This document shows positions 1 through 50,989 of a DNA stretch of 64,000 nucleotides, one piece after another. Source of the DNA: Eledone cirrhosa (taxonomy: Eukaryota). Within the stretch, counting starts at the first letter, position 1; each line of letters begins with the position of its first letter. The position numbers and the translations under genes were made by a program. The stretch covers positions 271,932,001-271,996,000 of the forward strand of contig OZ024741.1 in assembly GCA_964016885.1 (NCBI GenBank). The letters are read 5' to 3'. The notes under the pieces were generated by a model that was not told where the DNA came from, searched no databases, and saw nothing but the letters and a program-made list of their open reading frames with translations.

Positions 1-1111
1 TTTTTTTAAATTTATTTATCTAAAACCTCTCATAATGTAAACTTTGTTACATTGTTCCAAACACCAGCTTAATAACAAAGAAGTTATATTACTAAATCCC
101 TCCTAATTGTTGATTATTTGAAAATTACTGGCAGTATTTTTCATTTGAAATATGGTAATGAAAGGGATTAATACTTTTTTATAGGCATGTAATGGGATGC
201 ATTTTTGAAGAAATTACTGTATCCGATACAATGTAAATGTGGTTGGTGTTTAGGAAGGGCAACCAGCCATAAAAAGCAAGCCAAACACAGCTCCTATAAG
301 CAAGACATGGCCAACTGGTCAGACTTGTCTCATAATGTGACAAACCATCTAACCCATGCACATGTGGAAAATGGATGTTAAATGTTAGATGATTATGATG
401 TAGGAAAGAACATTATGAAACTCCTTTCCTATCTGTTGGAGTTAAAATTGAACATCAACCATATAAATTCTACTAGAACTATTCCTAGTTTACAGTATAT
501 GAAGGTTTGCCTCTGAATGGTAACTCTTAACATCCTGTACCACATAAAATCACATTAGCTAGAATGTCTTGTGACTTAGTGCTTTGCAACCAATACCTTG
601 TGATGAACATTGGTAGAGTGAAACTCTAGGAGCCTGTTATCTATGTGTTCTTTGCCTGTGTTGTTTACTGTTTGTTTATGTCCTGTAACTTACCAGTTTG
701 ACAAAAAGTCGATAAAATTTCCACCAAGCTTTAAAAAATAAGTACAGGAATTATGATCGACTAAATCCCTTCAAGATAGTACCTCAACATAGCTACAGTC
801 TGAAACAAATAAGAGTAAAAGAATATCTATGCAAGCCTGGGGGAAAACGAAAAACAACATAAACACTATAATAGTTTACATTCTAATTTAGAACCTTTAT
901 TATAACTGTAGAACTTCAAAGCTCTCAATCAATTTAACTCTCTTGTGGTTTAGTGTATTCCAGCCTAGCAAGTAGAAATACAGGTTGTGTTATTAAAACA
1001 CCCAGCCTAATGTAATATTAGTGAATGTAGGTCAGCTGAAGACAACTAAACTGGAAGTTAAACTGATAGAAATATTGTGTAGTAGAAGACAAATATATTT
1101 AAAATAAGAAT

Positions 1112-1165
1112 GACTTTTACAGGACTAGTACTGTTTCATTCTGTTATGAATTCATCAGGAAAAAC
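1112..1165 (-). ncRNA. Type I hammerhead ribozyme-like motif
   Basis: Minus strand reads ttttc CTGATGA ATTC-ataaca-GAAT GAAA CAG-tactagtc-CTG TA aaag: perfect core, helix II and helix III, GUA site; helix I has one mismatch next to the core. Confidence 0.6.
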
Positions 1166-2879
1166 AAATAAATGAAACACGAGAAAAATATTTATGATGG
1201 CAAGATATCATCACTATTTAATGTCCAATTTTCCACCTTAACACTGGTTAGAGTTGTCCTGTTTAGGGAAATAATTCCCAATATGGGGTGCATCCCCCAC
1301 AGGGGAACAATTTGAATATTTAAGTGGAACAATTTGAAATGAGAACAAACTACAGGTTTTACATCAAGGCAATTTTGGTACACATTACTGTTAGAAACTC
1401 AATCTCACTTCCTCCACACTTTATTGTGCATCTGGCACCACTTATATGCCAATTTGTTTATACTTTCAGTTGATCATTGCTGTTTTCTTATCAAGGATGG
1501 GGGGGATAACAGTTTTTAATATGTTGAGATGGGGGGCATTGGCACAAAAGGTTGGGAAACCACTGGCTTAGGTTGTAGGTTTTCAGGATTTTAGACCTTT
1601 ATTTAATGCAACTGAGGGAACAGATAATAAATCTAATTTCCTTCTCTACTCCGTATATGTGTTGTCTTCTGCCTATGGAGCAAATTTGGTTTGGCTCCTG
1701 GCAAAAATAATTCATAAACTTCTTTCAGTTGTCTATTAGAGTTTTCTCACTAACATCCTTGAAAAATGCATGAATGTTACACAATCTCATATACATCTTT
1801 GGCTTTGTATATCATCATCATCATCATTTTACATCTGCTTTCCATGCTAGCATGGGTTGGACATGCCATCATAGTTTGAATAAATTCTTATTCAAGATTA
1901 CTGCCTTCCAAAATGTGTTGGGGACGAAGCCTCTCTCATATGTCCCATTTTTTTTGGCATGGTTTCTACAGCTGTATGCCTTTCCTAACACCAACCACTT
2001 TTGAAAGTGTACTGGATGCATTTTATTGTGACACCAGCACTAGAGATGTTGCCATGCCCTTGGTTACATAATTTCTGGTCCTTTATTCCTATATAAATAT
2101 TAATCAACACACAATTACTTATTGATGCACATTGACAAATACATCCATTAATATACAACAGCATGCATACTGACATCTTAGTGCACACATATACTCATAT
2201 AAACACACACACATTTGGACATGCATATTTCAACATTTGCTTTGTTTGTTCTCTACCTCTTTCATTTTGTTGTATTAACATGATTCATGCAAATGTGTGT
2301 ATTTGTGGAACCACCCAACCTGTTCTAGCATAAGGTAAATTGATGTACAATGATTATAATGATGATGATTAAAAACAAATAATAATTGTGGAGGGGTACC
2401 ACTGCTGGATTGATTCATCCAACAACTCTTACTCTCCAAAAATCCTCTGATTTGGTCCCACACTCTGCCACTCACGATATGAACTAGTCTGTGATGCAGT
2501 TGTACCTGAGCCCCTCGTGGGTAAAACAGCAAGGTTAGATTTTAGACTTATATCTGGTCCTTGCATATATGGTGTTAGCCATTGGAATTATGGTAAGCTG
2601 ACAAATATCTGCATGAGATGTCTGTGGTTGCCATGTATGACCAGCCTGTTTGTGGTGCTGTGATTAAAAAGGTGGATTGACACACTCAAGACAGTTCTTG
2701 AGCTTATATCTGGTCCCTGCTTATATGATGTGCACTGTTAGAATCATGACTGGCTGACTAATACTTGCATCAGATGTGTGATAACTTTATATGGGCAGTC
2801 TCTGTGGTTTTGTGTATGTACTGGTGAGAGCTGGCATGTATGATGTCCACTGTGGGAATCATGACTGGCTGACAGTATT

Positions 2880-3305
2880 GGACATCTGTGATCAGTGTGG
2901 ATGGTCTTTGTGATCCCATGTACAAACGGCCATTGTGATCCCATGCATGGATGGCCTTTGTGATTGCCATGCATGGATGGCCTTTGTGATTGCCATGTAT
3001 GGATGGCCTTTGTGATCCCTTGTATGAATGGCCTTTGTGATTGCCATGTATGGACGGCCTTTGTGATGCTGTATATGGATGGCCTTTGTGATATCCATGT
3101 ATGGACAGCCTTTGTGATATCCATGTATGGACAGCCTTTGTAGTGCTGTGTATGGGCAGTCTTTGTGATGCTGTGTATGGATGGCCTTTGTGATTGCCAT
3201 GTATGGATGGCCTTTGAGATTGCCATGTATGGACTGCCTTAGTGATTGCCATCTATGGACGGCCTTTGTGATGCTGTGTATGGGCAGCCTCTGTGATGCT
3301 GTGTA
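2880..3305. repeat. 25/26-bp minisatellite
   Basis: Units tggatggcctttgtgattgccatgta / tggatggcctttgtgatgctgtgta. Confidence 0.9.
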
Positions 3306-3927
3306 TTCACAGGTGAGAACCAGCTCAACTCATTCTCGGTAAACATTGACAGGAGTACAAATACACTCCCATAGAGCCAGATATAATAATAAAAAAAAAC
3401 TTTGGCAAGCCAGTAGTACAACGGATATCTTCCGAATTTTTATATCTGAAAACCTGTGTCTTATTTAATTTTAAAGTTAAATTGTTAGTTGTATAAATAA
3501 AACATTAACCTCCCATCTATTTCTGAATTTTCAAAAACTCTAATTTATGCTAATTTATGTAAAATTGACTGTAAACATGGCTGTGTGGTTCAGAAGTACA
3601 CTTAATGATCATGTGATTTAGAAGGGTTTAATCCTATTTTGCAGCCTCTTGGGCATATTTTTTACTATAACTTTGGGTTAAGCAATGCCTTTTCATTGGA
3701 ATTTGGTAGACAATGTCTATGTAATGCATGTGTATGTGTGTCTGTCGTATTAGGTTGTATACCACTGCTTGACATCTTGGGCAAGGATTTTCAACTATAT
3801 ACTCAAGCCTATCAATGTCTTGTGAGTGAATTTGGTAAATGGAAATGGTATATAGCCCATTGTGTGTGTATGTCTGTGTATATGACAGTTACTACAAAGG
3901 TCAAGTTGACACTGCTTATATAGCTTA

Positions 3928-4835
3928 CTAGCAGTGGTACCCGGCGTTTTACGGGATAAGGTATTTTGGAACGCGGGCCGTCAACAGACCTAATCGTGGA
4001 AAAACTGCATGCCTGGACAATATGTAAAGAAAATAAACCGAATATTCTGATGGCTGGATAATCTTTGAGATTTTCTTCGATGAAGCAGGAAAAATGCAGG
4101 TTTTCACCTGATGCGGGCCCTAGGGGGTCAAGAAAATAAATTTTTTTTATGTGCATAATATGCCTTGAAATTTCGCGAAAAGCGGCTAGACCTAACGCCT
4201 CCAAAGAATCCTAAAAAGCTGAAAAAATGAAGTTTTTCACCTAATGCGGGTCCTAGGCCATAAAAAAGTTGGATTTTCTTTGCTTATGGTATGAAGAAGA
4301 GACTGACTAATACATAGTTACAATTTCAAGGAAATCGGTCTGACGTAACGCCTCAAATAACCCCTAAAAACCTGAAAAAACGGTCTTTCACTTAATGCGG
4401 GCCCTAGGAGATAAAAAAATGAATTTTTTTATGTGCCTAACACTCCCTGAAACACAAGTAATACACATGTAAAGTTTGAAAAGAATCGGTTGGGTATTTC
4501 TCGAGTTTTAGGGATTCAAACTCACGCGCGCACACACACGCACACGCACGCGCACGCGTGACGTAATGCAGACAGCCAGACATAGACAGATATTATAAGG
4601 GTGCGGCGTTATGTATGTATCTATCCAAAAAGAGAAAGACTAAGAGTTATAGAGAGAGATCGTTAAATCGTCCAATGCGGTCCCTAGGAAAATTTGAAAT
4701 TTTTTTTGCTCAGAACATTCTCTGAAACAAGTATTACATGTGTAAAGTTTAAAAACAGTCGGTTGGCTGCTTCTCTAGGTTTAGGGATTCAAACTCATAC
4801 ACACACAGACAGACATCCTCAGTTTTATATATATA
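3928..4835 (-). mobile_element. Non-autonomous Helitron, family 1
   Basis: Minus-strand 3' end cccgtaaaacgccggg hairpin, short spacer, CTAG then T; 5' end TATATATATAAAACTGAGGATG. Both ends are shared with 47721-48300. Confidence 0.7.
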
Positions 4836-6743
4836 CTAGCATTAAAGCCCGGCGTTGCTCGGGGTCATTAAGTTACCAAAGTTAGGTTGCACCACCCATT
4901 TTATGGCAGCACTTTTTTGTCTGCCAGGCACTGGGTGAATGAATTGCAGACCTGGAAGCATGAGCTGCGCCAGCAGTGACAATTGTAGTTTCGCCTATGG
5001 ATATTATCTCTGTGCAAAAAAGTGTTGAAATTTATTGTTTCACAGTACTTGCGCAACACGCGCGTAGACGATGCCAGCCGAACAACAGAGCTGCGATGGA
5101 GTTGTTCTGCATGGTTGTCTGTGTGTTTTCTAAATTTAAGACAGTAGGGAGGGTTGTGATGAGAGAGAGTTAGCTGTTGTTTCTAGCAGGTTTAGTGACC
5201 TCATAGAAGATATGTTTTCTAAATTTAAGACAGTAGGGAGGGGTGTGATATGGGGGAGAGTTAGCTGCTGTTTCTAGCAGGTTTAGTAACCTCATAGAGG
5301 ATATGTGTTTTCTAAATTTAAGACAGTCGGGAGTGGTGTGAACGGACAGTATCACCATCAAGCTTGGAAAGAGAAAGTAGCAGAAAGTATGAAGTTGTAT
5401 AGATTTTGAATGGTAGTAGAAAGAGTTCAGCAGTTTAAATGAGAGAGAAAAATCGTAAAATATTGAGTTTTATCTATTTTTTGCGTAATTGTGGGTGAAA
5501 TTGAAAAAATTATCTTCGTCAAGACGCAATCGAAACTATTTTGATTACTGAATTGTAAATTTCAATTGAAGAAATTCTATATCGTAGATTTCTATAACGA
5601 AGGAGCATGACCACACACGCGCGTAGACGATGCCAGCCGAACAACAGAGCTGCGATGGAGTTGTTCTGCATGGTTGTCTGTGTGTTTTCTAAATTTAAGA
5701 CAGTAGGGAGGGTTGTAATATGAGGGAGAGTTAGCTGTTGTTTCTAGCAGGTTTAGTTACCTCATAGAGGATATGTTTTCTAAATTTAAGACAGTAGGGA
5801 GTGGTGTGATATGGGGGAGAGTTAGCTGCTGTTTCTAGCAGGTTTAGTGACCTCATAGAAGATGTTTTCTAAATTTAAGACAGTAGGGGGGGGGGGGTGA
5901 TATGGGGGAGAGTTAGCTGCTGTTTCTAGCAGGTTTAGTGACCTCATAGATGTTTTCTAAATTTAAGACAGTAGGGAGGGGTGTGATATGGGGGAGAGTT
6001 AGCTGCTGTTTCTAGCAGGTTTAGTGACCTCATAGAGGATGTGTTTTCTAAATTTAAGACAGTAGGGAGTGGTGTGATATGGGGGAGAGTTAGCTGCTGT
6101 TTCTAGCAGGTTTAGTGACCTCATAGAGGATATTATTGTTTATCATTATCTAAAGGCAGATTGTTGTTGTTGAAGTGAGTGTGTGTTTGTATGCGTTTGG
6201 AAAAGAGGTTTTAAAAAAGATTTATCGCTTGTTGTTGAATAAATGTATCTGTTGCTTTTGAATAATTGTTGTTTCGTATGAAATGTAATAATTGTTTCTA
6301 CTTTTTTGGCACAAGGCCAGCAATTACCCAGTACATTACTGGTACTTTATGTAATAATAAACGTTCTCTATCTCTCTCACTCTCTTCTCTCTCTCTCTTC
6401 GGCAATTACGCACTTTGTCAGATGATATGAGAGAGTAAAACGGACAGTATCACCATCAAGCTTGGAAAGAGAAAGTAGCAGAAAGTATGAAGTTGTATAG
6501 ATTTTGAATGATAGTGGAAAGAGTTTAGCAGTTTAAATGAGAGAGGAAAATCGTAAAATATTGAGTTTTATCTATTTTTTGCGTAATTGTGGGTGAAATT
6601 GAAAAAAATTAGATGTGCCAAGCCGCAATCGATGCTATTTCGAATACTGAATTGTAAATTTCAATTGAAGAAATTCTATATCGTAGATTTCTATAAGAAA
6701 GGAGCATGACCACACACTGAGCTTTATAGATTATGATGATAGA
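4836..6743 (-). mobile_element. Non-autonomous Helitron, family 2, with internal ~90-bp tandem array
   Basis: 3' end cccgagcaacgccggg hairpin and CTAG at 4836-4839; candidate 5' TC end near 6730-6743; internal duplications. Confidence 0.65.
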
Positions 6744-7129
6744 TAGTGACAGTTGATTGTGACACACATGTACATCTAGTCTTGCAACATAACAGTTTAA
6801 TAGCTACTGACTCGTACTGTGTTTGGAAAAAAGTATGGGCTAGCATCGGGGAAGGCATCTAATCATAGAAAAAAGGATCTTGTCCAACACATGCAAGTAT
6901 GGAAACACATGTAAAAAACAATAGTGATGATGATGATTACAATATCGACAAATGGTGTTAACATCAAGAAAAACTGAAAAACAGATGCTTTTGAATAAAA
7001 ATAACTAGTATGGTTTTTCTTCTGTCCTTGTCACTGTCAGTAAAACAGTGAACCAGTAACTGATCTGTTGGAACCCCCATAACCAACAGCAGTGATATTG
7101 TTTAACAAATATGATACAAAATAAATATT

Positions 7130-7490
7130 TAAAGATGAGCTTGGAAGAACTGAGAGAAAAGCTGGGTTTAAGAGGAATCCTAGGTGATGTGCAAGAGACA
7201 AGACTGCATTTGTACAAACATGTGATGCATATGGATGATGATCAATGGGGGAAGAAGTGCCAGAAAATCTCAGTGGATGGAAGCCGCAATAAAAGTAGAC
7301 CGAGAAAGACCTGAGTGGTGGTGGCAGAAGTGGTGAATGCTGATCTCAAATTGCTGAGACTTGCAGAGGTGATGATGAAGAAAGGCGGAAAGTGGAGAGG
7401 TGCTGCTGTGCTGAAAAAAACCCGTCCAACCCATGCAAGCATGGAAACGGACGTAGAAATGATGATGATAACGATGGTGATGACGACAGT
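7130..7490 (+). mobile_element. Old RTE 3' fragment
   Basis: ELREKLGLRGI..VQETRL.LY.HVMHM, followed by the aacccatgc.agcatggaa...gatgatgat tail. Confidence 0.75.
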
Positions 7491-7698
7491 GTGAGTGGAG
7501 TGGCATATGTATTTGAGTGAGTGTAGGTTTTAAAAGAGGAAAGGCCAGTTATGTACAAACATAAATTTGATATTTCCTGCTACATTTTATATATTTATTT
7601 TTATTTTGTTTTATTTTATTTATGAATTGTTTATTTTTTTAAATTCAATTTTTCGTTTGTGTGCGGTCAACTGGAAATTGGTGTTTGTTCTCTTGTAG

Positions 7699-7923
7699 AT
7701 GGAGAGCTCAGCTGTGATTAACCATGAAAATGTAAATCAGATAGTGGACTATCAAACTCATTTCCGACTTAGAGAGAGCCAGGCTAGATCATTTGCTGAA
7801 GACCTCAATGAGCGTGTGACGTACTGGTCCGTTGGTCAGTCTCTGGTCATCTTAATCATCAGCATTGGTCAGGTGTTCATCATGAAGAGTTTCTTCACTG
7901 ATAGAAGAGAAGTGAAGACGTAA
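7699..7923 (+). CDS. TMED7: p24-gamma (TMED7/TMED3-like) terminal coding exon, copy A: coiled coil, TM helix, cytoplasmic tail
   Basis: Pyrimidine tract and AG (ttctcttgtag, AG at 7697-7698) directly before ATG GAG. Translation MESSAV...[28 protein letters not shown]...[18 protein letters not shown] matches the recalled TMED7 C-terminus ([28 protein letters not shown]...KSFFSDKR). Upstream GOLD exons were not seen in the window. Confidence 0.92.
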
Positions 7924-8026
7924 GACAGGGACATTCAGCAGGAAAGGCTACTGAGGTTGTGATATGAGGATCATATATGTCTCACAATCTCATCTTTTTA
8001 AAAGTGGAAAGAAGAAAAATAACCCA

Positions 8027-8098
<72 letters not shown>

Positions 8099-9045
8099 CC
8101 AAAAAATAAAATTAAGAGTGGGGCTTATTATGAAGACAAAAATCAAAACCAAACATTTGAACATTTTATTAAATTGGAAAATGGACTTGAATTCTAATTA
8201 TTAAAATTATGCCTTATATTTCAAGTAAAATACTCCTTTATGAAGTTAAGAGAAAGGGGGGGGGGAGAGAAGAGAGAGAGAGAAAGGGGGAGAGAGAGAT
8301 AGTGGAATTACACATCCAATAGGTTGACATGCTGATCAATTAATCATAATTCCTTCCTTCTCACCCTTGTTCTCTTAACACTTTCATAAAAGTACATTTA
8401 TTAATGATTTATTTTGTTTGTTTGTTCTGCTAGAATATTTAAATATTAATTATGACACCAACCATATTTCTATTAAGATAGACAGACAGGCATATAGATT
8501 AGACTAGTAATTGGAAATTCCATATTTCAATGCTTCAATCTTAAATTAAAACATTGACTAAAAACTTAATTGCCCTTTTTGATAATACAAAACTATTCAT
8601 TTTAAAGTGTTTGTATTTATCTAAAACTTTTCCATCATGCTTTATGTAAGAAACTTTTATGCTCCAAACTTCAAATAAATGAGTAATATTTCTAAATTAC
8701 TCCAAATTCTTGATTATTTTCAAACATTTGAAAAATCATAGGCAGTATATTTCATTAGAAATATGGCAATGAAAAGGTTAATAGCCCCTCTCTCATAAAA
8801 AAAGAAGAAATAGCCCTTCTCCAACAAATAATATTTCTAAATTACACCAAATCCTTGATTATTTTCAAACATTATTTGAAAAATCATTCGTAGTATATTT
8901 CCTTAGAAATATGTAAAAACAAAAAAAACAAGCAGCCCTTCTTCAAAACAGCAACACAACCCTCTCTCTTTATCTTGCACTATCTTGACACCTTTATATC
9001 CTGCCGAAACTTCAGTGATTATATCATTTTAGTTATTATTATTAG

Positions 9046-9275
9046 CAGGAGGGCAGTGGATTGGCAGTATCAGTAGAGCGTCAGACACCATGCTTTGCAG
9101 CATAGTTACGGCCCTTTATGCTCCGAGTTCAAATCCTGCTGAGGTTAACTTTTCCTTTCATCCTTAAGGGGTTGATAAAATAAAGCACCAGTAATGCACT
9201 GGGGTTGATTTAATCGACTTTCCCCTTTCCCTTCAAATTGCAGGCCTTGTGCCTAAATCAGAAACAATTATTATT
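9046..9275 (+). mobile_element. tRNA-derived SINE (representative of an abundant family)
   Basis: A-box-like tggcagtatcagtagagc, B-box GAGTTCAAATCC, central cctttcatcc..ggggt.gataaaataaag.accag resembling a Deu/Nin-type domain, ATT tail. Further copies at 10770, 16170, 17395(-), 21795, 25380, 30572, 30805(-), 34405-34692(-), 36838, 40495-40980(-) and 44895-45530(-). Confidence 0.75.
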
Positions 9276-9789
9276 GTGTAGTGTTAAGTAACTAAGTAAC
9301 TAAGAGGAATATAAGCCCACCCTTTTAACATTCTCTCATTTTTGTATATTTTCCCTAACAAATATCTTCCACTAACAAACCCATCCACATGTGCCTGTTG
9401 CCATAGAGAGTCACTGGATGGTATTGCCCCCTACTTTTCAGATTTAGAGAATAGAATTTATAAAACAAACAAGAAAAGAAAAAAAACGTCCCAAAATGCT
9501 TTTTCCTTGAATTAAAATGTCTACCCAGATTGTTCTGAAGTCCTCACTGAGCACCATAGCCAAGTGATAGGCTTGCACTGACCTCATAACTAAATAGACT
9601 GTGGTAATGTTAAACTGAAATAGCTTGCTCAGTAGAGAACAAAACAATGTGTGCGTGAAATGTGAATGATAAACTATCGTGTAGCCATCCAATTTCTTTT
9701 ATCTCACATCGTCATTTTATTGTTATCAACCTTTGGTACTGGGAAAACATGTAGTCAGTAACAATGTACAAAGTTAAATTTTCGGCTTT

Positions 9790-10015
9790 AACGAGTGGTT
9801 GCCGGAAAGTATCTGGCTTTGGGGGAAACGAAAATGCAGAAGGATCAGTTAATTATGATTTTATTCAACATTCCCTTCTCGGGTTCACACACTTATTGCA
9901 GCGGTCCTTCAGTTTTTCTAAGCCCTGTAAAAAGAACTCAAAAGGTTCAGCCTCCAACCAGGTCTCTGTAGCAGCGATCAATCCAGGAACTTTTCAGCAG
10001 TCCCTTGAAAGTGCT
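9790..10015. mobile_element. Mariner-type non-autonomous fragment
   Basis: Starts acgagtggttgccggaaagt, a mariner-like TIR; the rest resembles the antisense 3' end of a mariner transposase. Confidence 0.45.
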
Positions 10016-10018
10016 GAG

Positions 10019-10051
<33 letters not shown>

Positions 10052-10272
10052 AAGGATGATGTGTTCAAGAGCAGAGATGCTATAAAACAGTTTATAAAAT
10101 AGGATGAAGACCCTTAAAAGATGGAAAAAGTTGCTATCGTCTACTATGAGGAAATGAACCGTATATCTCCCAGATAGCGGCCAATGGCAACGTTTTTTCC
10201 CCCGTCTTTTAAGAGTCTTAACCCTATTTTATTTATTTTTACAGTATCTCTGCACTTGAGCACATCATCCTT
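10052..10272. mobile_element. Imperfect foldback/MITE-like palindromic element
   Basis: aaggatgatgtgttcaagagcagagat ... atctctgcacttgagcacatcatcctt, with inner arms also complementary. Confidence 0.6.
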
Positions 10273-10276
10273 AACA

Positions 10277-10353
10277 CAGGGTGTCCCCCAAAAATGCATA
10301 CACACTTCAGTAGCATTCTAATAACTATGTACACATATTTTTGGGATATCCTG
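10277..10353. mobile_element. Tiny Tc1/mariner MITE
   Basis: cagggtgtcccccaaaaatg ... atttttgggatatcctg-TA; sister copy at 29803-29900. Confidence 0.6.
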
Positions 10354-10385
10354 TATATATATATGCTTCAAACAAACTATAACAC

Positions 10386-10425
<40 letters not shown>

Positions 10426-10497
10426 GTGTTATAGTTTGTTTGAAGCATTGTGGAATATGAGATACAAATATAACTAGGAAATAAGTTTGGTTAAAAA

Positions 10498-10537
<40 letters not shown>

Positions 10538-10696
10538 CCATAATTTTTATTATTAAAGTGGTGGATTGTTGGAATTGTTAGGGTGTTGGCCAAATTGCTA
10601 GCCTTGTGCCAATGCTAGAAACAATATTTTCTTAGGGTGGTATGTATGGTTGAGAGTTGAATAATAAACTAAATACACTACAGTATTGAAAGTATA

Positions 10697-10740
<44 letters not shown>

Positions 10741-11924
10741 CCACACACATATACACACAGTATTATATAGTAGTTCAAATCCCGCCGAGGTTGACTTTGC
10801 CTTTCATCCTACGGGGTCGATAAAATAAAGTACCAGTAATGCACTGGGTAATTGCTGGCCTTGTGCCTAAAGTAGAAACAATTATATAGTATTTCTCAGT
10901 GGGTACTGAGTATATACAGTATTATATATATATAGTATTTTTTGGTGTTATTGCCCTCAGTAGGGGTTGAGTTCAAATCATGCCACGGTTGTTTTTACTT
11001 TTCATTTCTTCCATGATCAATCAAATAATACCAGTATTACATTAGGACAAAGGGGCAGATGTGTTCAACTAAATAACTATGCAACAATAAAAATTGGCTT
11101 TGTCACTAACAAATCTGCTCTCCTCCTCCTCATCATCATTGTTAGTTTCATCTGTCAACATTTAGTTTTGAATCCACCCTGCACGAGTCAATAAAATAAG
11201 TACCAGACATACACCAAGGTTCATTCAGTCTATTACATTCTTGCTTACCCTGCATGTGTTTGTGTGTGTCTGTGTATCTCTTCTGTGTATCATATTTTGT
11301 TGTTTGTTTTTGTTCAATTATTGAAATATGTTTACAAAATGTAAAAATTCTTGTCACTAAATTAGAATGTAATGAACTACAAAGCAATGATTGTGTTTGT
11401 TGTGGATTTCATCCTCAGACTGGTTCTGGACAACCCCCTGCCAGTTAACTTACACCCCGGTTGAGGTGGAGTGGGGGTGTAAGTATCATATACTTGTGTA
11501 TAAGTCACAGCCCCTGCTAGTTAAGTTACGCGAGTGTGGGGTGGTATACTGTTTATCATATACACTGGTGTAGAAGTCATACCTTTTTTCCTCACAAAAA
11601 TACCTGAAAAACCAGCATGTGACTCATCTACTGGACCTATAAAAAGTCGATTCAAAATATACAGGACATTTAAAGCCATATTAACTACTACAGCAGTGAT
11701 TAATCTTGTGGGCTCCATTTCAACTTCCATACCTATTATGGTGTTCTTTTTGAAGCAATGTTTTATATCCAGATGCTCTTCCTGCTGCCGACCCTTTCAG
11801 TTGCTTCTTACCACATGCAGGAATACAGTGTATCTATTCTAAACTGGATTCACTCAGCAATATGGTATGTTGTAATTTGCTTGAAGCATTGTGCAAAGTG
11901 TAGAAAATATTATTTTATGGGACA

Positions 11925-12384
11925 TTAACCCTTTAGTTACCAACCCATCCAAATCCAGCTCTGGTTCTATGAAACAAAACTACCCATTTTAAAGGTTTCC
12001 AATTTAAATTTAAATTGTCCAACGTAATTTTATATAAAAACCTTCTTTCTTTAAGTTACTATCTTAGTAATGAAATAATTAATAATTTTAGTAAATCCCT
12101 TGAAATTCTTCATTAACCCTTTAACATTTACATTACTCTATATACTATTGTATTTCCATGGGAAAGACTTTATTACACACAATTATCTCACATAATATCG
12201 AATCTATTAGATTTTGATATTATTTATTTTGAGAACAATACCTTAACATCAGTACAAGCAGCTGGTTATAGCCATTTTGAACAGAGAGGTGAGAGAATTC
12301 TGGCCGGATATGGCCAGTTTAAATGCTAAAGGGTTAATTAATTAGAATAGTATATTTCATTGAATGCAGCCATGAAAGGGTTAA
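11925..12384. mobile_element. Nested piggyBac-type MITEs (TTAA-CCC...GGG-TTAA)
   Basis: Outer ttaaccctttag(11925)...gaaagggttaa(12384) contains inner ttaaccctttaac(12113)...gctaaagggttaa(12337). Relatives at 17164-17381, 17682-18170 and 24816-24982. Confidence 0.6.
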
Positions 12385-13019
12385 ATGTTAAAAATAATAA
12401 TAAGGATATTTGATTGTTATCTCTGTGTTGTTTAATAGTCCTTAATATTTCGGAATAAAATCCCATCATCAAAAGAAGAATTGAGGAAAGTCCAAGGTAA
12501 CATTCCAATATCTTTGTCATATTTTGAACCGTTAATGTCCCATTTACATTGCTGTATCCTTCTAATAAAACACACTATTTTCTATTGTAAATGTTGTAAT
12601 ATGAAGATGAGAATTGCAACTCAATCCCTCCCCTCCTCCCACTTCATAGAGTATCTATTGTAAACTGGATTCACACAACAATATGGTACATTGTAAATGT
12701 TAAAGAGTGTGTTGTAGTTTGTTTGAAGCATTGTTGTAGCCTTCTAATAAAACACAGTATTTTCTATTGTAAATGTTGTATGTGAAATGGTGGTACGATT
12801 TATACATATATTTATATACAGTAATATGAAGATGAGAAATGCAATTCAATCCTTTCCCCCCACTCATCCTACCTTCATATATTTAATATTTGAAATTAAA
12901 AACAGTTCTGGTGTGTTTTCAGTTTGAAAGGATTAGTTATCCAACCAACATAATCTTTGTATGTTCTGATAATACTTAGATATTCATAGAATTTCAATTC
13001 AAATTTTTTTTTCTTCTTC

Positions 13020-13057
<38 letters not shown>

Positions 13058-13375
13058 GTGTGTGTGTGTGTGTGTGTGCTATGTTTGTTTATCAACAAAT
13101 AAGCTCAATGGACCTTGGTTCAGAGTATCAATTATTTAAATTTAAAAGATATATGGAGAGAGGAAGAAGCACGCATGATTTGAGAAACAGCATTTTGTAC
13201 ACGCATAGATATATATAGAATAAATAATAGTGAGGGAAATATGCATATTTTAAGATGCTAAAAAAGTCATTATTGGCTCTATATATGTGTGTACAAAATA
13301 CTGTGTTTCTCAATATATACTTCTTTCTCTCTACATGTATTTTTTAAAATTTAATTAATATAAAATATTAAACAG

Positions 13376-13430
13376 GAGTTTGTCTGATGACCCTGTGATA
13401 AACAGACGAAACTCCAGAGTAACAAGACTC
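13376..13430 (+). ncRNA. Type I hammerhead ribozyme-like motif in a Penelope-type repeat
   Basis: gagt-ttgt CTGATGA cc-ctgt-gataa-acag-ac GAAA ctc-ca-gag TA acaa-g-actc: intact core, GUA site at 13419-13421; two mismatches at the base of helix II. A related decayed copy lies at 49540-49735. Confidence 0.55.
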
Positions 13431-14800
13431 ACTTCTTAGCCTTAATAAAATGAATATTAAAATTCTACTTCGGTATTGAGTACTCCTCTCTCTCAGCCGT
13501 CAATACGGATATATATATATATACACACACACACATTGGTTGTAGATTGATAGATGGAAACTGTACAGATGCCCATCAGCTAGACTGTACTTGTAATTCT
13601 AAAGTCATGCCGTGTCACATATTTTGTCATGGTGGTTCATCTAGGAGAATTACATTAAGAGTTCATATGTCTGTGGGATACTCAACCACTTATACAATAA
13701 TTCAAGGTGGATTGTACCAGTAATTCATTGACTCAGCCATGTCACATATTGTCATGCTGATTAAACTTGGGGCAAGGCTACATGTATTACTGGTATATTC
13801 AACCACTTAAACTATATGAGATGGATTATACTTGTAATTCACTGACGCAGCCATGTTACATATGCTGATGGACCGTCTTGAGAATTACGTTAAAGGTACA
13901 CGTGTTAGTAGAATACTCAACCATTTACATGTTACTTCAGGTGTTAGACATTGAGCTGATCATCAAACAACTGGTGAAGACTCTATCATGTCATATTTCA
14001 TATCAAAACAAAACCAAAAATAATTTTAAAAAACATGGGATTAAACCTAAAATAAAAATTCAAACTCAAATCAAAAATTCAACAATGGAACTTTAAAGAC
14101 TGATTATTATTATTTGCCTTTAAATTTAAATTTTAGTTTGAATTTTTTTTATTTGATTCTGTTTTTTCTTTTTTTTTTTTTCAATTTGGGTTTTCAAAAA
14201 TATATATTTTATTTGATAACAGAAGCTGAAAAAACTCATTTGAATAAAAAATGTTTTAATATGAATTGAAATTACCATCTAGTTTGTATCATTTTAATTT
14301 GAAATAAGTTAGAATATAAATTTTTTTTTTATTCTTCCTCACCTTGAGAGGGTCATGGGAGCAAAGTCCTCAAACTTCTTCCAGCTGGTCCTGTTAGAAG
14401 CAACTGTCTCCAACTGATCCAGCTAGATCCCCAAGAGAGACTAGCCAAGCTTGCAAGATGGTTGGATAGCATCCACGAGCTGAGCTGGTTTTGCTTGTGA
14501 GATTCAGCTGGATGTTGGAGACGATTGCTTCAGAGAGAACCTGCTGGAAGGAGTGCTTTAGGACTCTGCCCCCACTACCCTCTCAGGAATATGTGGGCGA
14601 AGAACTTTTTTTCTTTTTTTTTCAAATTCAGCAGTCTTAGTGAATTGTTGGTATTTTAAGATTTGCTTTGAATGCATTGTAAATTTTGTAAACAATTTTT
14701 TTATATTTTTTTTTTATAAATATATATATCTATGAAATTAACTTTTTTGTAATATTTTAAGCATTCTTTTTATATATTTGAATTGTTTTGTCCAGAAATC

Positions 14801-14880
14801 AATAAATGAAATTTTGTTTTTCATTTGGAGAAGGTGTTGTTTTTTTTTTTTTTTGTTTTTTTTTTTGTCTTTGATTTTTG
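14801..14880 (+). terminator. Candidate polyadenylation signal for the exon-A isoform
   Basis: AATAAA at 14801-14806 after a U-rich stretch and followed about 27 nt later by a GU/U-rich element (ggtgttgttttttt). AATAAA is common in this AT-rich DNA. Confidence 0.3.
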
Positions 14881-16594
14881 TCAGATTATGAATTTCTTAT
14901 TTCCTTGCATTTTACTGATTCTGAATTGAGGAGGCAAATTAGGAAGCTGATCTGAGTAAGAAGGTAGAGCTGTGGGATTTAGTAGTAAGGGTGTAGGATT
15001 AGATTATAAATCCGGTTTGATTCTTGGACTGGGTTGTGTGTTGTGTTCTCCAGTATAGCATCGTCATCATCATTAATGTCCATTTTTCCATGTTAGAATG
15101 GGTATACTCGGATGAAAATGAGTACTAGCAATAGCTTGGGGTTTAACCCTGCAATGGACTGGAGGCAGTCATTTACTCTGTCACTTCACCACTACAGAAA
15201 CCAGGATTAGCACTGACCTGATGAGCCTCTGGGCTTGAGACAGACTTTAGACTTTTTCTCTAAGTAAGAACTATATTTTAAAACAGTTCCAACTAAGGAC
15301 ATGCACAATCTGTACCTGACCAGATGAATTTCAATCAAGATTAGTCCATCTCTGCCAACTCACTCTCACTATAGCCTTTCCCCCATGTAGATTATTTTTT
15401 GGTTGTCTTTTGTCTTGTCTTTGGAGTTCTGTGTCCCCAAATCATCTCCAACCATAAGAATAACACTCCCATGAGTTGGACTGGCTTTTTTTTAGTGGAT
15501 TTCATTTGTAAACCTCTATGGTAACACATTTCCATGTCTGTTTCAAGGGACCATGAGGCAACATCCATCTAATGTTTTGCGAAGGACACAGTAAAGTGGT
15601 CGTGTAGGTGTCACGACAAAAAGCACCCAGCCCACACTGTAAGGTGGTCGTGTAGGAGTCACAACAAAAAGCACCCAGCCCTTACTGTAAAGTGGTCATT
15701 TAAGTGTCACAACAAAAAGTACCCAGCTCACACTGTAAATGTGGTTGGCATTAGGAAGGGCATCCAGCTGTAGAAACCCAGCCAGAAACAGTTCTATATG
15801 AGTAAGACATGGTCACCTGATCCAGCTTGTCTTAAATGGAGCAACCCATCTAACCCATGCTAGCGTGGTAAATGGACGTGAAATGATGATGTTAATGTTA
15901 TCAATTAATGTTTTTATTTTTACACAGCTGCCTGATTGTTCCAGTAGAATCTTATAACGGCTAATGAAATACTACAGAGCTCATTAATAATTTTAGTGCA
16001 GTGTCATATTGCTGAGGGTGGCGTGGGGGTAGTTGCAGCTTCCCCCTTCCAAAAAATTGTTGGAAAATTTAGTCATTTTTGTTGGAAAATTATGAACAAT
16101 CATCCGCATCTCCAAAAATGTTTGGAGTAAGATGCTTGTTTTAGCATAGCATTATTCATTATGAACTGGGTGGTGGAATGGTAGTATCGGTAGAGCATCG
16201 GACAACATGCTTTGTGGCATAGTTATGGCCCTTTACGTTCTGAGTTTAAATCTCTCTGAGGTTAGCTTTGCCTTTCACCCTTAAGTGGCCGGTAAAGTGC
16301 CAGTAACACACTCCCCCTTGGGTGGGATCCCTGTTATCACAAGGTGGGCCCCTAGCTGCTACTAGTACTAATTTCTTTCACCTAAGTGAAGAGGTTTTGA
16401 GCAATAAAAAAAAAATGAAGTGCCTGGCTCAAGGTCACAATATGCTGCCTGATCCAGGAATCAAACTCACAACTTTATGAGTTGAAGCTCAACAGCCTAA
16501 TCACTCGGTCATCTCCCTTCATTGTTAGGAAAGACACTCAAACTTAAGTCTGTGCTGGTTTATTAAGAGGCAAGTGACTCGTAAAAGGATTTCT

Positions 16595-17150
16595 AATTTT
16601 GGGAGTGTCCTTTTGCCACAGTCAATAAAACAGGTAATTTTGAGAGTGTCCTTTTGCAACAGTCAATAAAACCAGGTAATTTTGGGAGTGTCCTTTTGCC
16701 ACAGTCAATAAAACCAGGTAATTTTGGGAGTGTCCTTTTGCAACAGTCAATAAAACCAGGTTATTTTGGGAGTGTCCTTTTGCCACAGTCAATAAAACCA
16801 GGTTATTTTGGGAGTGTCCTTTTGCAACAGTCAATAAAACCAGGTAATTTTGGGAGTGTCCTTTTGCAACAGTCAATAAAACCAGGTAATTTTGGGAGTG
16901 TCCTTTTGCAACAGTCAATAAAACCAGGTAATTTGGGGAGTGTCCTTTTGCAACAGTCAATAAAACCAGGTAATTTTGGGAGTGTCCTTTTGTTACAGCT
17001 AATAAAAGCAGATAATTTTGGGAGTATCCTTTTGCAACAGTCAATAAAACCAGGTAATTTTGGGAGTATCATTTTGTCACAGCTAATAAAAGCAGATAAT
17101 TTAGGGAATAACTTTTTGTTACTGTTGGTAAAACCAGGTAATTTTACATA
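16595..17150. repeat. 42-bp minisatellite, about 13 units
   Basis: Unit gtcaataaaaccaggtaattttgggagtgtccttttgcaaca. Confidence 0.95.
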
Positions 17151-18429
17151 GGTAAAATATTATTTAACCCTTTAGTGTTCAAACCGGCCAAAATTCTCTA
17201 CCTCTTTCTGTTGAAACTGGCTGTAACTGGTCGCTCAAACTGATGTTAAGGAATTGTTCTCAAAATAAATACTTGCATAATATCGAATCTATGAGATTTT
17301 GAAAGATAATTATGTGAGGTAAAGACTTTACCATGGAAATATAATAGTATATATAAAATAATGTGAATGCTAAAGGGTTAATGGGCTTTAGACCAAATAA
17401 TGATTTCTGATTTAGGCACAAAGCCAACAATTTTTGTGGAGGGGAAAGTCAATTAAATTGACCCCAGTACATTAATGGTGCTTTATTTTATCAACTCCAT
17501 AAAGATGACGGGCAAAGCTAACCTTGGCAGGATTTGAACTCAAAATGCAATGGGCCGTAACTCCATGCTGAAAAGCATTTTGTCCGATGCTCTACCAATA
17601 CTGCCATTCCACCATTTAGACCAGATAATTAAATGAAATTTAATTTGGAAAATACAAATAGTTATTAACTTTAAATAAGATTTAACTCTTTTGATACCAA
17701 ACCAGCTGAAACTGCTCCTGGTTTTATCATACAAAACAGTTACGGTAACAAACATAAACACAAGTGTTTATATTTAAAAACCTTCCATCATAATTTCATC
17801 TAAGAACCAAATGTTCCAAATACCAGCTTATTTATAGAAAGTTATATCGCTAAATTCCTCCAAATTATTGATCTTCGACCACTTATTCCTGAGTGGGTCG
17901 TGGGGGAAGTCCTCAAACACAAAAATCAAAAACACCCAAATGAGCTATTTTTTCAATATATAAGTTAAATATTTGAATCTATTTCTTTATTACAAATCTG
18001 TTGTATGAAGAGGGTCTATTAGACTGAAAATTAGAATAAAACCATGTTTTCATCACTCAAACATTGTTGGGCCTTCAAGTTTGTATCAAATTTAAGATCA
18101 ATAAATGTTATAGTTCACTAATACAAACACTGAAATCATTCATAAGATAGTTTGGTGATGAAAGGGTTAACTTAATCATCTGTCTGGTCCCTCAACTTTC
18201 AGAGAAGATTAAACAATCTCTAATTACTTGACAATGAAACAACATACAATATTGGTAAGTGAAGGCTGGAGTCTGGGTTCAATCCTTGGTCCAAAACTAG
18301 TCTAGTTTCAATCCTCAACCCAAGACTGGGGTCTGGTTTCAATCCTTGGTCCAATTCAATGCATGTTCACATTTTACTTTTAAAAAAAAAAAACATATAC
18401 ATCACCACATTCTATTTTTTCTCCAAGGC

Positions 18430-18665
18430 AAAAAGCTCCCAGTCCTCCCTGTAAGGTGGTAATGTTAGAGCCACAAAAAAGCTCCCAGTCCTCCCTGTAA
18501 GGTTGTAATGTTAGAGCCACAAAAAAGCTCCCAGTCCTCCCTGTAAGGTGGTAATGTTAGAGCCACAAAAAAGCTCCCAGTCCTCCCTGTAAGGTGGTAA
18601 TGTTAGAGCCACAAAAAAGCTCCCAGTCCTCCCTGTAAGGTTAGAACCACAAAAATGTTCCCAGT
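18430..18665. repeat. 46-bp minisatellite related to the RTE 3'UTR unit
   Basis: Unit aaaaaagctcccagtcctccctgtaaggtggtaatgttagagccac, about 5 copies. Confidence 0.9.
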
Positions 18666-20304
18666 ACATGGATTGGCATTAGGGCGAGAAAACCAAACCT
18701 TAAATGGATTGAATGAGCTAGCTTTGGTCACCTGATCTGTCTAGTCCCATAACATGACATCTTATCTAATTTAATCAAGTACGAAAAATAGATATTAAAT
18801 GATGATTTGCAAATATATGTGGCTTTTCCATGTGTCAGATGTCTCTGGTATTATTTTACAATGGCTGTGTGGGCAAGCTACTGGTCGTGTAGTTATGTTT
18901 ATCCTGGATGTTACCTCTATGAGTAGGGGACAGGGGATATAGGCCTGTTTGGTCTAGTTATTCTGACTGATAAGACCCATTGCAACCTGTATGCTGGTCG
19001 TGCTGGTGACACAATAAAAAGCACCCAGTCCACACTGTAAATGTTGTTGGCATTAGGAAGGATATCCAGCCATAGAAACCAAGCCAGAAACAGTTCTGTA
19101 TCAGCCAGACATGGTCACCTGATCTGGCTTGTCTCACAACCGGATAATACTTCTAACCCATGCTAGCATGGAAAGTAGTTGTTAAACTGTGATAATGATA
19201 TATCATCATCACTGTTTAGCGTCCCTTTTTCCACACTAGCATGGGTTAAACGAGTTGTCCTGTTGTGAGAAATGCCAAGTCAAGTGACCTTGTCTTTCTC
19301 ACATATACATATATTCATCCATCCATCCAACCAAGTTAGAAATAGTTCTGTATCAGCAAGACATGGTCATCTGATCTGATTTGTCTCACAGCAGGATAAC
19401 TTGTCTAACCCAAGTTAGCTTGGAAAATAGACATTAAACAGTGATGTTGATGTAGATACATTTGTGTGATTTGAGAGATTTGTTTGCTATTTCTAGCATG
19501 TTGAACGACCATAAAGAGGCTCCCTCATTGAATCCCCAAGAAACTTAACTCTCATATAAATTACTACTAAGAAATGCTATCCATCTAACTTTAAATGAAT
19601 ACCTTGGAATGGTACAGACTACTTAGCTGTAAATACACTGGATTGAAATCTTTTGTAAGAGATATTTGACTGCTATTTCTAACAGGTTGAATGATCACAT
19701 ATACAATGCAGTGCTGTTAATATTAATAAACTGTCACCATCTTGGTTAATTAGATTCCCGGTTAACTTATCTTGGCTCTTTGTCATCGTATCAGCATCTT
19801 TTTTTTTTTTATTAGTTGCAGTCACAAGACTGCTACCATGCTGGAACATTACCTTGAAGAGATTTAATCAATCGTATAGGGTAGGGAAGGAGGGCTTTCC
19901 CATCAAGTCAGTCGTACAGAGTAGGGAGGGAGTGCTGTTGCATCAAGTCACTCATGTGAGAGGAAGGGCTGTTCCATCAAGTTAGTCATGCAGCGTAGGG
20001 AGGGAGGACTGTTCCAATAAGTCACTCATGCAGAGTAGGGAGGGAGGGCTGTTTCATTAAGTCACTTATGTGGAGAGTGCTGGTGACGTGATAAAATGCA
20101 CCTAGTACACTCTTTAAAGTTGTTGGTGTTAGGAAAGACATCTAACTGTAGAAACCATGTCGCTTCAGTCACAGACGCGTCAACCTCTCAAGTGATGGTA
20201 CCATGGAAAATACACTCAGTAAACTGGTTGATGTTAGGAAGGGCATATAGCTGAGAGGACTCTACAGTTGTGTCAATGGCACAGCACCCACTACACTCTG
20301 TAAA

Positions 20305-20665
20305 GTGTAGGAACACAAGTAGGTGATGTGGGGTTGTCAGTCTGTAGTGTAAGAACATGTAGGTGAGATGGGGTTCTTAACCTGTAGTCTAGGAACATAT
20401 GGGGGTCCTTAACCTGTAATGTAGGGGAGATGGGGTCGTCAGTTTGTAGTGTAGGAACATAAATGAGATGGGGTTGTCAGCCTGTAAAGTATAGGAGGAA
20501 CATGTAGGTGAGATGGGGTCGTCCCCTTGTAGTGTAGGAACATATAGATCAGATGGGGTTCTTAACCTGTAGTGTAGGAACATGTAGGGGAGATGGAGTC
20601 CTCAGCCTGTAGTGTAGGAACATGTAGAGAAATGAGGTCGTCAGTCTGTAGTGTAGGAATATGTT
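20305..20665. repeat. Degenerate ~36-bp minisatellite
   Basis: Unit approximately tgtagtgtaggaacatgtaggtgagatggggtcgtcagcc. Confidence 0.8.
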
Positions 20666-21032
20666 GACTTTTCCATGCTGGCATGAGTTGGAGTATATAT
20701 ATATATATACTCACACACATTCACAATCATGGGTTTATATAGACATTTAAAAAATGTATATAATAACAAATAATAAAAATGCATGGATATATATACATAT
20801 ATTATATCATTTTTTTTACATTGACTTTTTCATGCTGGCATAGGTTGGAGTATATATACACATACATGTATATACTTACACATATTCACAACTATGCATT
20901 TTAAAATCTGATTTTAAACCTTTATACATTTTCAACTTCAACTATTAATACGTATTTCATTGAATAGCTATCAAGAATTCTACCTAAAATTAATTTTCTA
21001 TACATTTCCTCTCTTTCTTTCTCTCTCTTCAG

Positions 21033-21266
21033 ATGGAGCAGTCATCTGTGAATACACATGCACAATTGAACACTATTGCTGACTATCAGACCCATTTCAA
21101 GCTGCGTGAGTCAAGTGGACGAGCTTTCGCTGAATTCCTCAATGAGAGGGTGTTCTTTTGGTCTATATGTGAGACGGTGGCAGTTGTCGTTGTTGGAATT
21201 GGACAGATCATAGTTCTGCATAGCTTCTTCACAGACAAACGTCCAGCTAACACGATACAGTCGTGA
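21033..21266 (+). CDS. TMED7: p24-gamma (TMED7/TMED3-like) terminal coding exon, copy B
   Basis: Strong pyrimidine tract ctctctttctttctctctcttcAG (AG at 21031-21032), then MEQSSV...DYQTHFKLRESSGRAFAEFLNERVFFWS...GQIIVLHSFFTDKRPANTIQS*. Same phase-0 boundary as copy A; ungapped alignment to it. Confidence 0.9.
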   Translation: MEQSSVNTHAQLNTIADYQTHFKLRESSGRAFAEFLNERVFFWSICETVAVVVVGIGQIIVLHSFFTDKRPANTIQS

Positions 21267-21561: not shown

Positions 21562-22115
21562 TTATGTGTGTATGTATATATATATATATATATATATATA
21601 CACTTACATGCATACACATATACACTTACATACTACCATTTCATGATAAAATGTACGTTTTTAAAATAAAGTTTTCTCCACTGAAAAAAATGTTTTCATT
21701 ATTTGTTTGAAAAACTATAAATTTATCACATGATTTACTTGGCATATTAAAAGTTCTGTTATTTATTTAAAACTTTTCTTTACCATACCTCCTAATGCAG
21801 TGACTTGACAGAGTTGTTAGAATGTCAGTCCTTTGTGGCGCTCTGCTCTCTGAGTTCAAATCCTGCTCAGATCAACTTTGCCTTTCATCCATTTGAGGTT
21901 GATAAAAAAAAAAGTAGCAGTCTAGTGCTGGGGTTGATTCTTCTCCTATATCTCTTTCTTCCATACTCTCACTTTCTATACTTCTCTAGAAGAAATCTGC
22001 TATGTTCAGACCTGGAGAGGAGATGGGCTCTGCTAGGCTTAAAAATGCCCTAGAAACACTATGCCACTACAGCGCCCCCTACAACTCCCTTAGGAGTTGT
22101 GGGATCATACATACA

Positions 22116-23890
22116 TGTCAACTGCTACAAAGGTAAAGGTGATGCACTAGATAGAGGAAACTATAGAGGTATAAAGCTGATGAACCAGGTCATGAAAGTA
22201 ACAGAAAGAGTTATAGCACAGTTGATTAGGGACTGGGTGAAATTAGATGAGATGCAATTTGGGTTTGTACCAGGAAGAGGCACCACTGATGCCCTCTTCC
22301 TTGTGAGGCAGCTACAGGAAAAGTACCTAGCTAAAAGTAAGCCACTCTACCTGGCATTCGTCGATTTCGAGAAAGCCTTTGACAGAGATCCACGTGCTAT
22401 AATCTGGTGGGCTCTTAGAAAACTAGGAGTAGATGAATGGCTTGTGAAAGCTGTACAAGCCATGTATAGGGGAGCAATCAGCAAAGTTAGGATTAGCAAT
22501 GAGTATAGCGAGGAATTTAGCGTACAGGTTGGTATCCACCAGGGCTCTGTTCTTAGCCCTCTCCTGTTCATCATAGTCCTGCAGGCAATAACGGAGGAGT
22601 TTAAGACCAGATGTCCATGGGAACTCCTGTATGCAGATGACCTCGCACTTATAGCTGAATTTATGGTAGAACTAGAGAAGAAATTCCAAACTTGGAAGCA
22701 GGGACTAGAAAGAAAGGGTCTCAAGGTCAACATGACAAAGACTAAGGTCCTTGTAAGTAGATGAGAAAACAGAACCCAGATCCCCTCAGGGAAATGGCCT
22801 TGCTCAGTATGTAGGAAAAGTGTAGGTAGGAACTCCATTCTCTGCCCCAAATGCAAACAATGGGTACACAAGAGATGTAGCGGGATCTCAGGAAGCTTAA
22901 TTAAGAATGTAGGCTTCACATGTAGCAGCTGTGCTCGGACAGCAAGCAGCAAACAGCCACAGGAAACAAGTACCACCAATCTCTGGGAGGGCTCTGTAGA
23001 GACAGTAGACAGCTTCTGCTACCTAGGTGACCGAATTAGCAGCGGAGGTGGGTGTTCAGAAAGTACAATAACTAGGGTAAGAACGGGATGGAAGAAGTTC
23101 AGGGAACTACTACCACTGCTAGCTGCAAAAGGCTTCTCCCTCAAAATGAAAGGCAGACTGTATGATGCGTGTATCCGAACAGCAATGTTACATCGTAGTG
23201 AGACCTGGGTGCTGAAAGTGGAAGACTTACGTAGATTAGAGAGAAACGAAGCCTGCATGCTCCGATGGATGTGTAATAGTAATATACGTGAACGACAAAG
23301 CATATATGAATTGAGAGAGAGACTGAGTTTAAGAGGAATCAAATGCTGTGTGCAGGAGAGGCGGTTGCGTTGGTATGGACATGTGATGCGTATGAAGGAT
23401 GACAGCTGCATAAAAAGGTGCAGAGCACTAGAAGTCAATGGAAACCGCGGAGTGGGGAGACCTAATAAGACCTGGGATGAGGTGATAAAAGCCGACCTTA
23501 CCCAATTACACCTCTCAAAGGCGATGACACACGACCGTGACCTCTGGCGTCATGCAGTAATACAGAGTACCTGACCTCTCATGGGTACAAGCTGAAGCAT
23601 ATAGACAATATGCCCCCACACCCTCCCACTGCAAGGTGGTCGTGGAGGTGCCACGGCAAAAAAGCACCCAGCCCACACTGTAAAGTGGACGTGTAGGTGC
23701 CACGGAAAAAGCACCCAGCACTCACTGTAAATGAGGTTGGTGTTAGGAAGGGCATCCAGCTGTAGAAATCAAGCCAAATCAGTTCCTGTATGAGCAAGGC
23801 ATGGTCAGCCGACCAGACACTGCCCACAACAGGACAACCCGTCTAACCCATGCTAGCGTGGATGAACGGACGTAAAATGGTGATGATGAT
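22116..23890 (+). mobile_element. 5'-truncated copy of the same RTE LINE family
   Basis: Near-identical to 52747-54520. RT with YADD, premature TGA at 22762, same 3'UTR and GAT tail. Confidence 0.93.
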
Positions 23891-50800: not shown

Positions 50801-50989
50801 ATATGTGTGTGTGTGTGAGTGTTTATGCCCAACTTACTCTCAGGTACCGAATAATGGGGGGGGGGGGGGATAAGCGAGGTTGGGGTGGAATTGGTAATGT
50901 TTCTAGGTAGTCTCTGTTGAATTTAAAAAAAACCAATTGTTGTTTAGTTTACATATTAAGACCCCAACCCATCCTATTTATTTTATAAT

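Follow-up and report, generated by a model that had tools for sequence, protein, structure and literature searches.

A p24-gamma gene of Eledone cirrhosa with a single GOLD-encoding front end and two intact, duplicated last exons

The window examined here, a stretch of 64,000 nucleotides (G000:C2:271932001-271996000) from the 3.0-Gb genome of Eledone cirrhosa, carries two homologous last exons of a p24 (TMED) gene, both on the forward strand. By protein similarity the genome falls among the octopods. The proximal exon A (7699..7923, "short" type) encodes 74 amino acids (aa) followed by TAA (7921-7923), and the distal exon B (21033..21266, "long" type) encodes 77 aa followed by TGA (21264-21266). 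Each was recognised from its sequence, from Pfam and in a hidden Markov model (HMM) scan, and each encodes a stalk helix, a transmembrane (TM) helix, an FF pair and a tail, which reads TDRREVKT in A and TDKRPANTIQS in B. A first-pass annotation of this DNA had proposed that one GOLD ectodomain is joined to either of these two exons. It had noted that both start at the same phase-0 position (AG/ATG GAG at 7699 and 21033, the slash marking the splice site), are stop-free, align without gaps with 37/70 residues identical, keep the cytoplasmic FF, and differ in their tails and at every one of residues 45-55. All of these points were borne out on the sequence: the gapless alignment gives 37/70 and 38/74 identical residues, the FF pair lies at exon residues 65-66 in both exons, and 11/11 positions differ between residues 45 and 55 ([11 protein letters not shown] in A versus ICETVAVVVVG in B).

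The 3' splice site of exon A (7674..7698) ends in TAG and has the weaker tract, with 13/22 pyrimidines upstream, whereas that of exon B (21008..21032) ends in CAG behind a strong tract of 22/22 pyrimidines. Candidate polyadenylation signals, in each case the first AATAAA after the stop codon and identified as a hexamer match, are found at 8105..8110 and 21665..21670; the DNA is AT-rich at both places, with seven AATAAA/ATTAAA hexamers within 2.5 kb of stop A. Against Pfam family PF01105 (EMP24_GP25L, cut-off 25.9 bits) A scored 60.3 bits, B 54.5 bits and the upstream exon 2 68.9 bits, and neither A nor B is a chance match (E ~2e-39 each). Their identity by codon position is 40/69 (first), 54/69 (second) and 31/69 (third). 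By the method of Nei and Gojobori the proportions of synonymous and nonsynonymous differences (pS and pN) between A and B, the comparison for which these values were computed as relatives are represented by proteins only, are 0.74 and 0.30. The corrected ratio of nonsynonymous to synonymous substitution (dN/dS) is ~0.13, rough because dS is near saturation.

Upstream of exon A the window holds the 3' part of the long intron 2 (1..7698, forward strand), as placed by profile and protein searches and the HMM scan. The two front-end exons are found on the same strand, 68 and 56 kb before the window begins. Exon 1 (G000:C2:271863713-271863889; L015:1501-1677) begins with ATG and encodes in 59 codons a hydrophobic N-terminus, read from the sequence as a signal peptide, together with the first GOLD strands; its PF01105 score of 20.9 bits is under the cut-off, at E 4e-4. 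Exon 2 (G000:C2:271876205-271876453; L002:1513-1761) encodes the GOLD domain and linker in 83 codons and ends at a phase-0 donor (TTG/GTGAGT) compatible with both phase-0 acceptors, 63.2 kb (A) and 76.6 kb (B) away. Both were located by genome searches and the HMM scan, and genome-wide family and protein searches, which score best candidates only, returned one copy of each. An unfiltered six-frame HMM scan of 7,889 stop-to-stop segments was run over 183 kb without any N, comprising 79 kb upstream, the window and 40 kb downstream; exon 1, exon 2, A and B were the sole matches, the next best having E 0.17, and no GOLD or signal exon was found between A and B in any frame. Because these 183 kb hold no further GOLD or last exon and the front-end exons are single, the locus is one gene rather than two. 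That B should instead belong to a second, tandem gene with upstream exons of its own that escaped detection, an arrangement that the first-pass annotation had named as one that would refute its proposal, gains some room from the restriction of the genome-wide search to best candidates. It is nevertheless extremely improbable given the unfiltered scan, the identical N-termini on both forms in relatives, and a bivalve-like contig with no GOLD exon between its two last exons (see below). We are highly confident of the architecture itself: a TMED3/7-type p24-gamma gene in which one front end, encoding signal peptide and GOLD domain, is followed by two duplicated last exons that are both intact.

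The B form of Octopus sinensis, modelled with AlphaFold2 on a 30-sequence alignment (mean predicted local distance difference test score (pLDDT) 76, predicted template modelling score (pTM) 0.44), has GOLD strands at 33-124 and a single helix at 140-210. This model and the hydrophobic 19-mers in A and B (best values 2.04 and 2.21, respectively) match the p24/TMED architecture of a GOLD beta-sandwich, a long helix running into one TM segment and a short tail. The last exon starts at residue 144, and a swap therefore takes nearly the whole stalk-plus-TM helix and the tail while leaving GOLD unchanged. Over 10 A/B-type pairs from molluscs, differences fall on 50% of positions in the first 20 luminal residues, 46% in the TM segment and 30% in residues 21-43. 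Type-specific residues stand at exon positions 18, 22, 35 and 46-47. The named best matches are TMED7/TMED3, ERP2 or generic GOLD/emp24 proteins, all automatic names, and on sequence grounds the gene is assigned to the TMED3/7-type p24-gamma subgroup, with which it has in common a signal peptide, GOLD, stalk helix, TM segment and FF tail. A C-terminal dilysine COPI signal is typical of alpha and delta p24 proteins and is not known to be required in gamma. None is present at the ends of A (EVKT) or B (TIQS); the alpha- and delta-like p24 genes of the same genome end in AKKLV and SKKLIE. PDB entries 21gl and 21gm contain TMED2, 5, 9 and 10 chains and offer a template for the hetero-oligomer.

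Both exon types have counterparts in other molluscs. In O. sinensis, XP_029644669.1 (isoform X1) ends in a B-type and XP_029644670.1 (X2) in an A-type exon, and their N-termini are identical; compared with them, the present gene has 75/77 identical residues in B, 65/74 in A and 79/83 in exon 2, which both forms share. In the comparison with decapodiforms, A (55/74) and B (57/77) are conserved nearly like exon 2 (67/83). A profile search, from which the best 120 of 1,364 matches were taken together with their cluster members, gave 224 proteins, 198 of which could be split at the exon border. Among these, 30 of the 168 distinct N-termini carried more than one C-terminal part. Two Biomphalaria pairs were dropped as their tails differed trivially, which left at least 28 pairs of homologous last exons (50-70% identity across 66 aa) from at least 24 species. 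The pairs are not cephalopod-specific and occur in three classes, cephalopods, gastropods and bivalves (O. sinensis, a decapodiform, four Haliotis, Gigantopelta, Sinanodonta, five Mytilus, four scallops, Ruditapes, Mercenaria and five oysters). The accessions of paired forms are consecutive or nearly so wherever both were seen.

Assembled Logan contigs add to this picture. Two decapodiform-like Logan proteins, P0002 (A type, one contig) and P0034 (B type, four contigs; resembling Sepia pharaonis CAE1304718.1), have identical N-termini and come from contigs of ~1 kb. Full-length oyster forms are likewise found on short contigs (P0180 on 13, P0198 on 17), the contigs carrying full-length forms being ~1-1.8 kb long. 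Other bivalve-type open reading frames diverge into unrelated sequence exactly at the end of exon 2, as an unspliced intron would make them do, and the short full-length contigs are therefore best read as spliced RNA. A bivalve-like contig from a marine metagenome (L062) has a short-type exon (start 1395) followed by a long-type exon (start 6952); they lie 5.6 kb apart, and no GOLD exon intervenes. It was the only one of 80 loci in the metagenome scan with two last exons; 15 picked single-exon genomic loci, mostly annelid-like by similarity, showed no second exon in 2.0-10.0 kb downstream, a flank too short to prove absence.

Several observations on individual lineages stand beside these pairs. 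Four Pacific oyster models (P0188, P0189, P0205 and P0207), of both isoform types, have four extra residues at the exon 2/3 junction. Caenogastropod and heterobranch snails (P0112, P0113, P0115, P0094 and P0106) were represented among the best 120 of 1,364 matches by the short-type exon only, with no isoform labels, possibly through loss. Three TMED7-like proteins of Branchiostoma (P0134, P0177 and P0179) are labelled isoform X2 and could be an independent or an older case; the X1 partner was not retrieved, a representative search giving no match above 71% identity among 150 listed. Annelid-like contigs (many of L068-L110 versus L043-L066) carry two different TMED3/7-type last exons in apparently separate genes, and in L096 and L109 one of the two genes has an exon 2 that ends earlier, pointing to gene duplication rather than exon duplication.

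By analogy with these relatives, we infer that both isoforms are made in Eledone. The contrary view, that this species uses a single exon and that the other, silenced recently, survives as a relic, can draw on the fact that none of the 24 sequencing runs listed for exon A is an RNA record. Exon B had no contigs in 4/4 runs, a result that carries no information because the large run taken as a DNA control was among them. We regard the contrary view as very improbable, as both exons are intact with canonical acceptors, and as the identities to O. sinensis are 75/77 for B and 65/74 for A, set against 79/83 for exon 2.

A tree of 54 last exons over 77 columns, the deep forks of which remain open, places coleoid A (99/96) and coleoid B (100/98) in separate starred clades, and the duplication therefore predates the octopod-decapodiform split. 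The long forms of bivalves (mussels, scallops, oysters, venerids and unionids) form one clade (96/88), outside which fall those of abalone, Gigantopelta and cephalopods; the long group needs five changes on the tree and the short group eight. A single chiton sequence, P0075, joins the bivalve long clade (96/85). The approximately unbiased (AU) test rejected neither a single clade of all 18 long forms (p 0.132) nor a single clade of cephalopod A and B together (p 0.332). Leaning towards one origin are the short-then-long order common to this genome and contig L062, the greater distance of the long form from six non-mollusc outgroups in 9/9 pairs, and a terminal serine in the long form of 9/10 pairs and the short form of 0/10, the pairs being related to one another and not independent. 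The types were assigned by tail length, and length itself is therefore no evidence of origin. On balance, we slightly favour one origin for the pairs of cephalopods, gastropods and bivalves, the ancestor of which lived more than 500 million years ago. As for the comparison with vertebrate TMED3 and TMED7 made in the first-pass annotation, it is sound as an analogy and fails as orthology: the sole row of the tree that we take to be vertebrate-type joins neither exon clade, and the automatic NCBI names TMED3/TMED7 of the O. sinensis X1/X2 isoforms find no support in the tree.

We propose that GOLD exon 2 is likely spliced to either A or B, which would give two receptors with a common GOLD domain and with different stalk helices, membrane helices and tails. 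Judging from the anatomy, exon A, which comes first and has the weaker acceptor, may be chosen if cleavage of the transcript occurs just after it, and exon B, with its strong acceptor 13 kb further on, if the transcript extends beyond A. The arrangement of one GOLD ectodomain with two alternative last exons envisaged by the first-pass annotation is upheld by the single GOLD exon, the matching phase and the pairs in 24 mollusc species, O. sinensis among them. It is not a classical internal mutually exclusive cassette, as each exon has its own stop; exclusivity would therefore follow from the choice of last exon and polyadenylation site, and no special exclusion device is needed. A search for docking-selector pairing, crude in that it took perfect matches and covered 1.5 kb of the 63-kb intron, found a longest perfect complement of 11 nt at either acceptor, which is also the length that occurs most often among 200 random windows. 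By comparison with human p24 proteins, either isoform could occupy the gamma position in the alpha/beta/gamma/delta complex, and the choice between them may alter cytosolic or luminal partners (tether binding, retention versus release, lipid-anchored cargo). The isoforms would then likely behave differently in traffic between the endoplasmic reticulum and the Golgi. In this connection a 2014 paper by Theiler et al. is said, going by its title, to assign the recognition of glycosylphosphatidylinositol-anchored cargo to the alpha-helical region of p24gamma2.

What the swapped region does in human paralogues is described in recent work. Human TMED1, 3, 5, 6 and 7 are separate genes (PMC13404660), whereas in these molluscs a single gene, with one GOLD domain for both, supplies two C-terminal parts of TMED3/7 type. 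According to a 2026 preprint, TMED7 retains and TMED5 releases misfolded cargo; GRASP55 binding needs the basic residues of the TMED7 tail and the coiled coil, though TMED7 with the TMED5 tail still bound; and TMED7 with the TMED5 coiled coil lost GRASP55 binding and cargo entrapment and kept TMED2/9/10 binding (PMC13404660, section 10 for the latter). The mollusc pairs resemble these chimeras in that GOLD is constant and the coiled coil or tail is exchanged. They differ in that the chimeras are engineered from distant paralogues, whereas the mollusc swap is natural, involves exons ~50-70% identical and moves coiled coil, TM segment and tail together. The first-pass annotation had taken it as established that the coiled coil mediates hetero-oligomerisation, and this is contested: a review credits dimerisation to the GOLD domain (PMC7045115) and the coiled-coil chimera still bound TMED2/9/10 (PMC13404660), while TMED9 homo-oligomers assemble through coiled coil and TM segment (PMC11414720). 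In human paralogues, the stretch that is swapped in molluscs is thus among those on which the choice of partners and the handling of cargo depend, but A and B have diverged less than TMED7 and TMED5 have.

In our judgement, the choice of last exon probably allows one gene to produce two gamma subunits of different function, the functional difference being what we infer. Several points weigh against this. Spliced reads of this species did not come to light, the RefSeq X1/X2 isoforms are automatic models, and the polyadenylation signals are hexamer matches only. A and B keep the same core motifs with similar hydrophobicity and could be near-redundant, the TMED7/TMED5 pair of the human chimeras is more distant than they are, and the TMED5 tail alone on TMED7 still left GRASP55 binding (PMC13404660). 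It is thus conceivable that both isoforms are made and do the same job, the second exon being kept for a different 3' untranslated region or for dosage control and the protein differences being drift within structural limits. The common core motifs fit this, different 3' untranslated regions necessarily come with two exons, and, since a number of snails (caenogastropods and heterobranchs) showed a single form among the best 120 of 1,364 matches, the long exon may be dispensable. We consider it unlikely, however, because type-specific residues have long been held: AEFLN and WSICET occur in every coleoid B form seen and, in pairs that are related, the long form ends in serine in 9/10 cases versus 0/10 for the short form and is the more distant from non-mollusc outgroups in 9/9.

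The splicing design of two subunits from one gene is of a known kind, and both isoforms are already present in automatic annotations. By its anatomy the locus falls within the class of tandem duplicated exon substitutions: the exons are in tandem, in the same phase and both intact, with one upstream part and no gene between them. Of the human events of this class, 77/236 are C-terminal swaps, and such events are often ancient (PMC9741552). As in those cases, for example TPM1, homologous exons replace one another and the proteins are identical save for one homologous region; what sets the mollusc swap apart is that it covers the entire third of a p24 protein that anchors it in the membrane. TMED had no match in the human catalogue (PMC9741552 text and supplement, PMC8373072 supplement), where the control TPM1 had 6 and 27. 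In the TMED7-TICAM2 read-through (TAG), the TMED7 GOLD domain is placed on a second protein (PMC13207963); there it is a neighbouring, unrelated gene that supplies the second part, whereas in molluscs it is a duplicated p24 exon. Our literature search, outside which lay older p24 family surveys and most subscription journals, turned up neither a description of duplicated last exons for any p24 gene nor a study of TMED7 isoforms in molluscs.

Further p24 genes are present in this genome. One (L001, G000:C14:22085567-22086097) is an intronless TMED3/7-type p24-gamma gene whose open frame of 254 aa shares 38% identity with O. sinensis X2; by its sequence it looks like a further gamma subunit and an old retrocopy. 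The others (L003/L009, L004/L010 and L007/L008/L011), which we take from their motifs to be alpha-like, TMED5-like and delta-like, have a single last-exon match each, and no beta (TMED2-like) p24 was among the 11 genome matches. Within the window, a tandem repeat with a unit of ~35 bases, read from the sequence, lies between A and B (16597-17151). Pieces resembling long interspersed nuclear elements (RVT_1, endonuclease, and a PHD finger after the reverse transcriptase) are found at 22054-23574, only ~800 bases past stop B, and at 50960-54226 and 58106-59074. A blastn comparison of the A and B flanks gave five short matches, none at the exons, which were read as dispersed repeats and discarded.

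How p24-gamma subunits differ is a standing question, for which recent studies of chimeras implicate the stalk and tail, not GOLD. The mollusc pairs, found in three classes and at least 24 species, offer natural tests of this, with GOLD constant and stalk, TM segment and tail changed. They also take the record of conserved duplicated last exons beyond vertebrates and insects, with what appears to be an old case spread across the lineage. A bolder version, which we hold to be quite unlikely, is that a single ancestral last-exon duplication gave rise to a tissue- or stress-dependent splice switch between functionally opposed p24-gamma subunits, one retaining and one releasing, as human TMED7 and TMED5. 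If that were true, the mollusc pairs would form a natural chimera series with which to map the stalk, TM and tail residues that set the direction of p24 traffic.

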